Of a stretch of DNA of 50,247 nucleotides, positions 14,795-16,525 are shown in pieces. The notes under the pieces were generated by a model. That model ran no database searches and was not told the origin of the DNA. It was given only the letters and a program-made list of their open reading frames with translations. Both the position numbers and the translations under genes were made by a program. This DNA is from Minisyncoccota bacterium (GTDB lineage: Bacteria > Patescibacteriota > Microgenomatia > UBA1400 > UBA12028), in NCBI GenBank assembly GCA_016211945.1, contig JACRHV010000008.1, positions 1-50,247 of the forward strand, read 5' to 3'. Numbering within the stretch: position 1 is the first letter of the stretch; each line of letters starts with the position of its first letter.

Positions 14795-16525
14795 GAGAAT
14801 TTGATCCTGGTTCAGGATGAACGCTGGCGGTGTGCCTTAAGCATGCAAGTCGAGCGGGTGTAGCAATACACCAGCGGCAGACGGGTGCGTAATACATAGG
14901 AATCTACCTCTTTGTGGGGAACAGCTCGCCGAAAGGCGGGGTAATACCGCATAAGCCCGTAAGGGGAAAGTCGCAAGACGCGAAGAGAGGAGCCTGTGTC
15001 CCATCAGGTAGTTGGCGGGGTAATAGCCCACCAAGCCTATGACGGGTAGCCGATGTGAGAGCATGATCGGCCACAAGGTAACTGAGACAAGGTGCCTACA
15101 CCTACGGGTGGCAGCAACTGGGAATCTTGCGCAATGGGCGAAAGCCTGACGCAGCGACACCGCGTGTGGGATGAAGGCCTTCGGGTTGTAAACCACTGTG
15201 GCAGGGGAAAAACACAATGATGGTACCCTGCTAGAAAGCACCTGCTAACCACGTGCCAGAAGCCTCGGTAATACGTGGGGTGCAAGCGTTATCCGGATTT
15301 ACTGGGCGTAAAGAGTGTCGTAGGCCGGTGTGCACGTGGCGGGTTTAAGCCTGGGGCTCAACTCCAGAACAGCTCGTCATACGGCATACCTTGAGTCTGC
15401 TAGAGGGAACTGGAATTCTCTGTGGAGGGGTGAAATCCGTAGATATAGAGAAGAACGCCAATGGTGAAGACAGGTTCCTGGGGCAGTACTGACGCTGATG
15501 AACGACAGCTAGGGGAGCGAAAGGGATTAGAGACCCCTGTAGTCCTAGCCGTAAACTTTGCTCGCTAGGTGTCCGCATTTATGTGGATGCCGTAAGCTAA
15601 CGCGTTAAGCGAGCCGCCTGGGGAGTACGGCCGCAAGGCTAAAACTCAAAGGAATTGACGGGGGAGCGCACAACCAGTGGAGCATGTGGTTTAATTCGAG
15701 ACGAAGCGAAGACCTTACCTAGGTTTGACATGTACCTGCAAGCTTGTGGAAACACAGGCCGCCTTCGAGGGTGGTACACAGGTGATGCATGGCTGTCGTC
15801 AGCTCGTGGCGTGAGCCGTCTGCTTAAGTGCAGCAACGAGCGCAACCCCTACTGCGTGTTACATATCACGCGGGACTGCCTATCTTCAAGATGGGAGGAA
15901 GGAGGGGACGACGTCAAGTCAGCACGTCCCTTACATCTAGGGCCACACACATCCTACAATGGCGATGACAACGGGTCGCGACGGAGTAATCCTGAGCTAA
16001 TCCTTATAAACATCGCCTCAGTTCAGATTGCGGGCTGAAACTCGCCCGCATGAAGTCGGAATTGGTAGTAATCGCAGATCAGAAGGCTGCGGTGAATACG
16101 TTCTCGCTCCTTGTACACACTGCCCGTCAAATGAGTGGAGCTGGCAATGCCCAAAGCGGATGACCCTAACTCGCAAGAGGTGGGCGCCACTACGGCAAGG
16201 TCAGTAACAAGCGTTAAGTCGTGGGTGAAAATAACGCGACCTATCCGAGTAATTGGATAGAGAAACTTGGCTGATATCGGTGAAGCCTACGTGCAATAAT
16301 TTGCATATGAGAATACCGAGGGAAGCTCGATGTCTAATCAACGTCGTAGCCCCGTAGAGACTTACATAGGAGGTACCAGATAATCTGGAAATAAACTTCT
16401 ATTACACGCCAACGCCTTGTTTGCAAAAAACAAGGATGAAGATATAGTCCATGCCGGTCGAAAGACTCGGAAATACATGAACAAGGTATCCCTACTGGAA
16501 GGTGGGGATGGATCACCTCCTTTCT
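14795..16525 (+). rRNA. rrs: 16S rRNA gene, interrupted by one intron
   Basis: The 5' end is gagaatttgatcctggttcaggatgaacgctggcgg and the 3' end is ggatcacctcctttct. Conserved blocks are present throughout (gtgccagaagcctcggtaatac, ggattagagacccctgtagtcc, gcaacgagcgcaacccc, tgtacacactgcccgtca). It is 1,731 nt with the insert and 1,474 nt without. Ends are good to about 5 nt. Confidence 0.95.
16223..16479 (+). mobile_element. ORF-less group I intron in the 16S rRNA (near E. coli position 1498)
   Basis: It splits aagtcgt | aacaaggta. The exon ends in U. The intron GCGAC (16236-16240) pairs with exon GUCGU, giving the U-G wobble at the splice site (P1). The gaagatatagtcc core motif (J8/7-P7) is at 16438-16450. 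The last nucleotide is G. Confidence 0.8.

Follow-up and report, generated by a model that had tools for sequence, protein, structure and literature searches.

A 257-nt insert in the only 16S rRNA gene of a Minisyncoccota bacterium is probably a group I intron without an open reading frame

How a ribosome can be made when the universal block AAGUCGUAACAAGGUA of its 16S ribosomal RNA (rRNA) gene is split by 257 nt is the question raised by a 50,247-nt stretch of DNA from a Minisyncoccota bacterium (hereafter the window; assembly GCA_016211945.1, contig JACRHV010000008.1, positions 1 to 50,247 of the forward strand). We propose that the insert, at window positions 16223–16479, is a group I intron located after the U1498 equivalent of the single 16S gene, and that it is transcribed and then removed by two transesterifications. 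With the splicing chemistry inferred, we place the probability of this reading at about 0.88. Group I introns in 16S genes of the candidate phyla radiation (CPR), including introns lacking an open reading frame (ORF), have already been published, and the window intron adds one member to them.

The 16S rRNA gene starts at approximately 14789. Direct reading of the sequence places the end of AAGUCGU at T16222 and the resumption of the exon at A16480, so that the block is arranged as AAGUCGU / insert / AACAAGGUA, with an insert that runs from G16223 to G16479 and has G as both its first and its last base. The 5′ exon terminates in ...GUUAAGUCGU at T16222 and the 3′ exon reads AACAAGGUAUCC...GGAUCACCUCCUUUCU from A16480. 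An initial annotation of this DNA, made from the letters alone, had already described the interruption, and its coordinates proved exact. The three parts are as follows.

16216–16222, + strand: end of the 5′ exon, AAGUCGU (E. coli 1492–1498), with U16222 as the 5′ splice-site nucleotide; from direct reading and intron-less alleles.
16223–16479, + strand: probable ORF-less group I intron, 257 nt; from the Rfam model RF00028, a leave-out profile hidden Markov model (HMM) and covariation.
16480–16525, + strand: 3′ exon AACAAGGUA, helix 45 and the anti-Shine–Dalgarno tail of 16S rRNA; from direct reading and intron-less alleles.

Excision of 16223–16479 leaves a sequence that aligns without gaps to the final 151 nt of E. 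coli 16S rRNA and puts the insertion point after E. coli U1498 (1542-nt numbering), 44 nt before the E. coli 3′ end. U1498 and A1499 flank this site, which belongs to the strand linking helix 44 to helix 45 and adjoins A1492/A1493. The site also falls inside the 1492–1510 target of 1492R-type primers, which bears out the earlier statement that the insert splits this primer site. The default Rfam scan forces the end of the 16S model to 16244, despite the true 3′ exon at 16480–16525. A metagenome scan for the joined junction, queried with the host's own upstream exon sequence, returned three contigs without the insert, whose 16S sequences are 89.6, 93.4 and 95.5% identical to that of the window; all three align to 16222, pick up at 16480 and extend into flanking spacers. 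Judged by their sequence, these contigs are intron-less DNA alleles of relatives, and the intron is a presence/absence polymorphism. Because the relatives break precisely at 16222/16480, the boundaries of the 257-nt insert are independently fixed.

Misassembly readily affects rRNA regions, and the genome was assembled into 16 contigs, which raises the explanation that assembly or binning created a chimeric join of a foreign intron into the 16S gene. We consider this next to impossible, since the flanking exons are colinear with the intron-less alleles, the nearest relatives (genomes G006 and G007) carry the insert at the same nucleotide with 88–89% identity, and an insert at this site recurs in over 100 independent assemblies, among them records titled complete chromosomes. 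Among 60 related genomes searched, seven showed the same-nucleotide insert (G006, G007, G010, G036, G050, G052 and G057). The G006 intron is 269 nt long and 88% identical to that of the window, the G007 intron is 89% identical over its assembled part, the G010 intron is 197 nt, and those of G036, G050, G052 and G057 span 709–761 nt.

A wider pattern scan of species-representative genomes, in which the J8/7–P7 block had to be followed after 20–50 nt by AACAAGGUA, found at least 120 loci; among the 120 matches listed, 109 map to 16S 3′ ends and about 100 also carry AAGUCGU followed by the guide GCGAC. With a relaxed pattern, the listed matches yielded a family set of 105 loci of the form AAGUCGU / intron / AACAAGGUA, to which all counts out of 105 below refer. 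Eleven of the 120 matches have no exact GGAUCACCUCC 16S 3′-end motif downstream. They include eight that lie outside 16S genes and were left out (four Nostoc loci and one each from Bacteroidales, Planctomycetes, Eggerthellaceae and Vicinamibacteraceae), and also L041, L098 and L102, which are 16S genes with a variant tail and were kept, L098 and L102 being part of alignments A1 and A2. Family members range from 197 to 917 nt. The earlier description of the window intron as close to minimal size was therefore overstated: 257 nt is small, yet the same family has 197- and 211-nt members.

The insert can be folded by hand into the group I architecture: a P1 helix with a U·G pair, a P3–P8 core with its pseudoknot, P7 with J8/7, and a terminal omega-G placed by P9.0. 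The hallmarks that the initial annotation had named were all recovered at the positions given there. The 5′ exon ends in U (T16222); the guide GCGAC (16236–16240) pairs with exon GUCGU (16218–16222) and forms the U16222·G16236 wobble, a pair shared by all 30 aligned members; the J8/7–P7 core GAAGAUAUAGUCC lies at 16438–16450; and the terminal nucleotide is G (G16479). The J8/7–P7 region also matches the Rfam consensus AUgAAGAUAUAGUC. The predicted elements are listed here with the support for each.

16218–16240, + strand: P1, formed by GUCGU plus G16223 (16218–16223) with CGCGAC (16235–16240), including U16222·G16236, with loop L1 at 16224–16234; five pairs invariant in 30 of 30.
16241–16260, + strand: P2, 8 bp (16241–16248 with 16253–16260), GNRA tetraloop GUAA at 16249–16252; eight of eight pairs changed on both sides.
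16267–16273, + strand: P3 5′ strand UUGGCUG, pairing with 16405–16412; four of seven pairs changed on both sides, 94% of cells paired.
16277–16282 with 16314–16319, + strand: P4, with AA/AA loops J4/5 (16283–16284) and J5/4 (16312–16313); adenines invariant or nearly so.
16286–16311, + strand: P5, with the CCUAAG..UAUGG receptor motif in variant form; from the alignment and the hand-drawn structure.
16320–16353, + strand: P6/P6a/P6b hairpin, the loop of which is the site of a LAGLIDADG_2 ORF in relatives.
16357–16362, + strand: P7 5′ strand G(A)GACU with bulged A16358; P7 invariant, 100% paired.
16366–16402, + strand: P7.1-like two-part hairpin (16366–16372 with 16396–16402, and 16376–16380 with 16384–16388).
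16405–16412, + strand: P3 3′ strand CA(C)GCCAA.
16415–16435, + strand: P8 hairpin, 8 bp (16415–16422 with 16428–16435), the loop of which is the site of a LAGLIDADG_3 ORF in relatives.
16436–16450, + strand: J8/7 AUGAAGAUAU and P7 3′ strand AGUCC (16446–16450).
16451–16453 with 16476–16478, + strand: P9.0, AUG with CAU; three of three pairs changed on both sides.
16454–16470, + strand: P9 with GAAA tetraloop at 16460–16463; five of six pairs changed on both sides.
16479, + strand: omega-G at the 3′ splice site; G in 104 of 105 loci.

The single locus with a different last base, L090 (intron at L090:611–832), ends in A rather than G (...CAACCUA / AACAAGG) and may be a decayed copy or have a shifted 3′ splice site.

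The structure was evaluated on 30 ORF-less members aligned with MAFFT (alignment A1), with pairing partners slid by 1–3 columns and 500 shuffles as controls. The structure, hand-drawn from one of the sequences and including the P3/P7 pseudoknot, has 86.1% of its cells paired in these 30 members, compared with 38–43% in the slid controls. Changes on both sides were seen for 33 of the 57 pairs, and the covariation score was 0.375, compared with approximately 0.1 after sliding; none of the 500 shuffles reached the observed values. P7 and the five exon–guide pairs of P1 showed no variation at all, the J8/7–P7 block having been partly preset by the search pattern, so that its invariance is not independent evidence. 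Lower pairing figures for P4 and distal P8 reflect register shifts that MAFFT introduced between two core subtypes. The single-sequence fold of the window intron is, in addition, more stable than that of shuffled sequences (z = −4.45).

Homology was assessed with a leave-out profile HMM built from 13 family members, from which the window intron and those of G006 and G007 were excluded. The profile matched the window intron over its full length with 91.4 bits (E = 1.3e-26). The intron shares with the same-site family both the exact insertion nucleotide and sequence homology.

By analogy with other group I introns, the fold suggests how the intron would leave the transcript. The P7 pair G16359–C16449 (the presumed guanosine-binding pair) would hold a guanosine from outside the intron, and this guanosine would attack the bond after U16222, which the guide GCGAC would present as a U·G wobble in P1. 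G16479, placed by the 3-bp P9.0, would then occupy the guanosine site, and the 3′-OH of U16222 would attack the G16479/A16480 bond, ligating AAGUCGU to AACAAGGUA. Docking of the P2 GUAA loop on P8 and of the P9 GAAA loop on P5 probably clamps the fold during these steps.

The host genome (908 kb, 16 contigs, scored 100% complete) contains one 16S gene. As this is the sole copy in a genome scored complete, a functioning ribosome depends on the product of the intron-bearing gene, and since the insert sits in the strand between helices 44 and 45, the intron at 16223–16479 would have to be removed for the ribosome to function. The expectation of the initial annotation that unspliced rRNA should be non-functional is likewise a reasonable one. 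The opposite outcome, in which the insert persists as an expansion segment of mature 16S rRNA or is excised without ligation to give a fragmented 16S, has precedents cited in PMC11270868, namely an unspliced 23S group I intron of Simkania and 23S intervening sequences excised by RNase III. We regard it as very improbable for the window intron. A retained, structured insert of 257 nt next to A1492/A1493 would be expected, from the structure of the ribosome, to disturb decoding at the decoding centre, and the gene that carries it is the only 16S gene found. Features that matter only for splicing (the U·G pair of P1, P9.0 and omega-G) are conserved or covary across phyla. Furthermore, PMC11270868 states, with reference to Brown et al. 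2015, that insertions in CPR rRNA are taken out of the transcripts; the initial annotation had named the same report as a source for insertions in CPR rRNA genes.

Several observations nevertheless weigh against a self-splicing group I intron in the window. First, the gathering-threshold Rfam scan does not list it: a permissive scan aligned all 253 positions of RF00028 to 16213–16470, scoring 27.9 bits (E = 3.2e-5 locally and 1.4e-5 over the whole 908-kb genome), which is below the curated cut-off of 50 bits, an operational threshold rather than a structural criterion. Comparison with the Rfam group I model, which had been suggested as a check, thus gave a full-length alignment and failed to reach the curated threshold. 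Second, the Simkania 23S intron just mentioned is titled unspliced in the reference list of PMC11270868. Third, the window intron and its subclade lack the GUU/AAC pairing of P10. Fourth, an extra hairpin of 37 nt stands beside P7 (the whole P7–P3′ insertion being approximately 40 nt). Last, the window intron has a P5 receptor motif that differs from the one in other CPR-type members.

The low Rfam score, the lowest among the members tested, can be placed in context. When 12 same-site relatives were scanned with RF00028, eight passed the threshold with 56–82 bits, and the weak score of the window intron therefore reflects its own peculiarities rather than a different origin. Regarding Simkania negevensis (Everett et al. 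1999, cited in PMC11270868), its intron is a bacterial rRNA group I intron and a precedent for retention; it differs in its location, which is 23S rRNA rather than the strand of 16S rRNA at the decoding centre, and the splice-specific features of the window intron are clearly conserved.

The structural peculiarities define a small subclade. The hairpin at 16366–16402, between P7 and P3′, is present in 7 of the 105 loci, corresponding to six distinct introns because L119 and L007 are identical in sequence and were counted as one. Compensatory changes in this P7.1-like hairpin were seen in L032 and L071. Its sequence is single copy in the host genome, which rules out a miniature repeat element. 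We also dismissed the idea that AGGAGGU (16369–16375) in this hairpin masks the anti-Shine–Dalgarno tail: the motif is not kept in G006, L032, L057, L071 or L138, and in relatives it is merely coding sequence and stem. GUU directly 5′ of GCGAC can pair with the 3′ exon AAC in 84 of the 105 loci, forming P10; the window intron and its hairpin-bearing subclade have no GUU at this position and hence no P10. In P5, the CCUAAG..UAUGG motif of other CPR-type members is replaced in the window intron by CCUACG..CAUAUGAG.

Without P10 and with the extra hairpin, efficient protein-free splicing is less certain for the window intron than for typical members. An alternative is therefore that the intron is group I by descent and has lost self-splicing, so that it needs a protein helper. 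This could be a host factor or a LAGLIDADG maturase, such as those encoded by the two introns in the 23S gene of its operon. The three deviations at P10, the P7–P3′ junction and the P5 receptor would all be accommodated by such a dependence, as would the lowest Rfam score. Yet every core element is intact (P1 with its U·G pair, P3–P9.0, J8/7, P7 with the bulged A, and omega-G), and many group I introns can do without P10. The G006 intron has the same ORF-less form and keeps the pairing at 88% identity, which indicates continued selection on the ribozyme. Two LAGLIDADG_1 ORFs do lie nearby (22417–22899 and 23927–24388), and homing endonucleases may double as maturases (PMC11270868), but nothing ties the enzymes of the 23S introns to the 16S intron. 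On balance we think loss of self-splicing unlikely, while giving it far more weight than retention, and continue to favour an intact self-splicing intron.

What distinguishes the window intron from most of its family is its coding content. An ORF of at least 100 amino acids occurs in 78 of the 105 loci. Those in loop L8 of relatives encode LAGLIDADG_3 proteins, and the ORF in loop L6 of G007 encodes a LAGLIDADG_2 protein, with a like arrangement in loci L032, L057, L071 and L138. The L6-type ORFs start in the 5′ strand of P6a, run through P6′, J6/7 and P7, and stop at a UAA within the loop of the extra hairpin. Inside 16223–16479, we found no ORF of at least 60 amino acids, and thus no intact homing endonuclease, in agreement with the earlier claim that the insert lacks an endonuclease ORF. 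It does contain a short frame.

16330–16383, + strand: 17-codon frame MSNQRRSPVETYIGGTR and stop, beginning at AUG 16330, with its tail overlapping P6′, P7 and P7.1; compared with G007, L032, L057, L071 and L138.

The C terminus of the G007 enzyme reads ...HRSPVETYIGGTR before its stop codon, and the last 12 residues of the window frame are identical to it; G006 likewise keeps the AUG and the tail of the ORF. On the simplest reading, the 17-codon frame would be a remnant of a LAGLIDADG_2 gene from which an internal deletion removed the middle and spared the parts that overlap the ribozyme. The family, always at the U1498 site, would have spread by means of LAGLIDADG homing endonucleases, and the window intron would have lost its endonuclease gene by internal deletion. 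With this gene gone, it would pass on by inheritance alone unless an enzyme acting in trans mobilised it.

These features can be compared with a recent survey of CPR 16S genes. Tsurumaki et al. 2024 (PMC11270868) described 378 insertions, 134 of them group I introns and 49 of these ORF-less. A frequent group I site in that study is 16IS10, numbered after 16IS9 at position 1400, and both LAGLIDADG_2 and LAGLIDADG_3 genes are found there; group I introns at 16IS10 were stated to be unreported in known bacteria. The window intron resembles these introns in host group and in kind of element, and the enzyme pair at 16IS10 is that of its relatives. The U1498 site is likely 16IS10, the two being matched by description because the 16IS10 coordinate is given only in a figure. 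Four details described here go beyond the PMC11270868 text that we read: the remnant of the ORF, the missing P10, the P7.1-like hairpin and the occurrence of the family outside CPR. Our literature search for 16S introns near helix 44 found none. The 16S group I introns of Beggiatoaceae (Salman et al. 2012, PNAS) also block standard polymerase chain reaction (PCR) primers, in a different host; PMC11270868 counts no other bacterial 16S introns as experimentally characterised.

The distribution of the family extends well beyond the host group. By record titles, same-site members occur in many CPR classes, in Dormibacterota, Chloroflexota, Omnitrophota and others, and in Solirubrobacterales and Acidimicrobiales, the latter two orders including records titled complete chromosomes. 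The core comes in two subtypes, CCGUAGAGAC and CUCAGAGAC, each present in several phyla, the CUCAGAGAC subtype being found in Actinomycetota and in loci titled Peregrinibacteria, Berkelbacteria and Saccharimonadales. This spread of subtypes fits repeated horizontal transfer into a universal target. That the family is a single lineage which moves horizontally into the universally conserved AAGUCGU / AACAAGGUA site, and has crossed between CPR classes and at least Actinomycetota (Solirubrobacterales, Acidimicrobiales), Dormibacterota and Chloroflexota, is a further proposal, which we put forward tentatively and hold to be somewhat less probable than its negation.

Two observations concern the taxonomic labels. 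The locus titled Candidatus Peregrinibacteria (L102) has a 282-nt intron with the Actinomycetota-type core (81.8 bits with RF00028); PMC11270868 states that there are no insertions in Peregrinibacteria 16S genes. Metagenome-assembled genomes (MAGs) labelled Gammaproteobacteria, Pseudomonadales and Alphaproteobacteria have CPR-like 16S 3′ ends, and we treated their labels as doubtful. Among them, third-party annotation (TPA) MAGs titled 'uncultured Gammaproteobacteria' or 'Pseudomonadales' (L024, L036, L048, L050, L057 and others) have 16S ends and introns of the Microgenomates/Daviesbacteria type, and their taxon labels are probably wrong.

Our current understanding of CPR rRNA introns is unchanged by the window intron, and the cross-phylum family is the most interesting by-product of the analysis. 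Primers of the 1492R type cannot amplify the 16S gene of the window, which partly explains how such organisms escape amplicon surveys. If the wider spread is indeed undescribed, both 1492R-based and full-length 16S surveys would systematically miss or truncate such soil and groundwater lineages, and 16S introns outside CPR would be far commoner than a picture limited to giant sulfur bacteria. The window intron itself would represent a stage of the intron life cycle in which the endonuclease gene is deleted and the ribozyme maintained. The family offers a ready set of natural variants (197–917 nt, with or without P10 and P7.1, and with two endonuclease families) that is suited to the study of minimal group I ribozymes and of homing at a universal rRNA site.

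Relationships to other group I introns were examined within the host genome. After the 16S intron itself, the family profile scores highest there with an intron in a transfer RNA (tRNA) gene, tRNA(CAU) of contig C3 (44 bits, E = 3e-12); scores of 17 and 13 bits were obtained for the two introns of the 23S gene. The 16S and C3 tRNA introns share the blocks UAUCGGUGAA, AAUACCGAGG and CCGUAGAGACUA. Group I introns in the anticodon loops of bacterial tRNAs, for example those of Azoarcus tRNA-Ile and cyanobacterial tRNA-Leu and tRNA-fMet, belong to subgroup IC3. Like the window intron, the bacterial anticodon-loop introns have a compact P1–P9 fold without large peripheral domains, with P2 and P9 capped by GNRA loops and with an AA/AA J4/5. 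Unlike them, the window intron resides in rRNA, and the hairpin that it carries between P7 and P3′ occupies the place where P7.1 is typical of subgroup IA. The shared blocks and profile score suggest a kinship of the window intron with compact tRNA-type (IC3) introns, the extra hairpin being atypical of IC3. Two group I introns above the Rfam threshold interrupt tRNA genes of the host.

C3:48840–49055 (L002:1501–1716): group I intron in tRNA(CAU), 56 bits with RF00028.
C1:246888–247147 (L001:1501–1760): group I intron in a tRNA gene, 81 bits with RF00028.

Group II sequences were also noted elsewhere in the 16S genes of some relatives with the same-site group I intron, where RF01998 domain matches of 36–51 bits lie at L007:1980–2066 (G006), L077:6888–6971 and L098:3976–4089; there was no RF01998 match in the 16S gene of the window. 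The rRNA operon of the window is unusual in further respects. Its 23S gene (20370–24795) extends over approximately 4.4 kb, compared with the 2.9-kb model. The two LAGLIDADG_1 ORFs within it, at 22417–22899 and 23927–24388, adjoin weak RF00028 matches at 22791–22973 (27 bits) and 24263–24465 (36 bits), so that the operon includes no fewer than two further group I introns with an endonuclease gene. Approximately 3.8 kb separate the 16S gene from the 23S gene (16530–20370), and the spacer holds two tRNA genes (17371–17442 and 19867–19939) as well as protein genes, namely a 2′-5′ RNA ligase/2H-superfamily protein on the minus strand (17710–18222) and a bestrophin-like protein (18861–19634).

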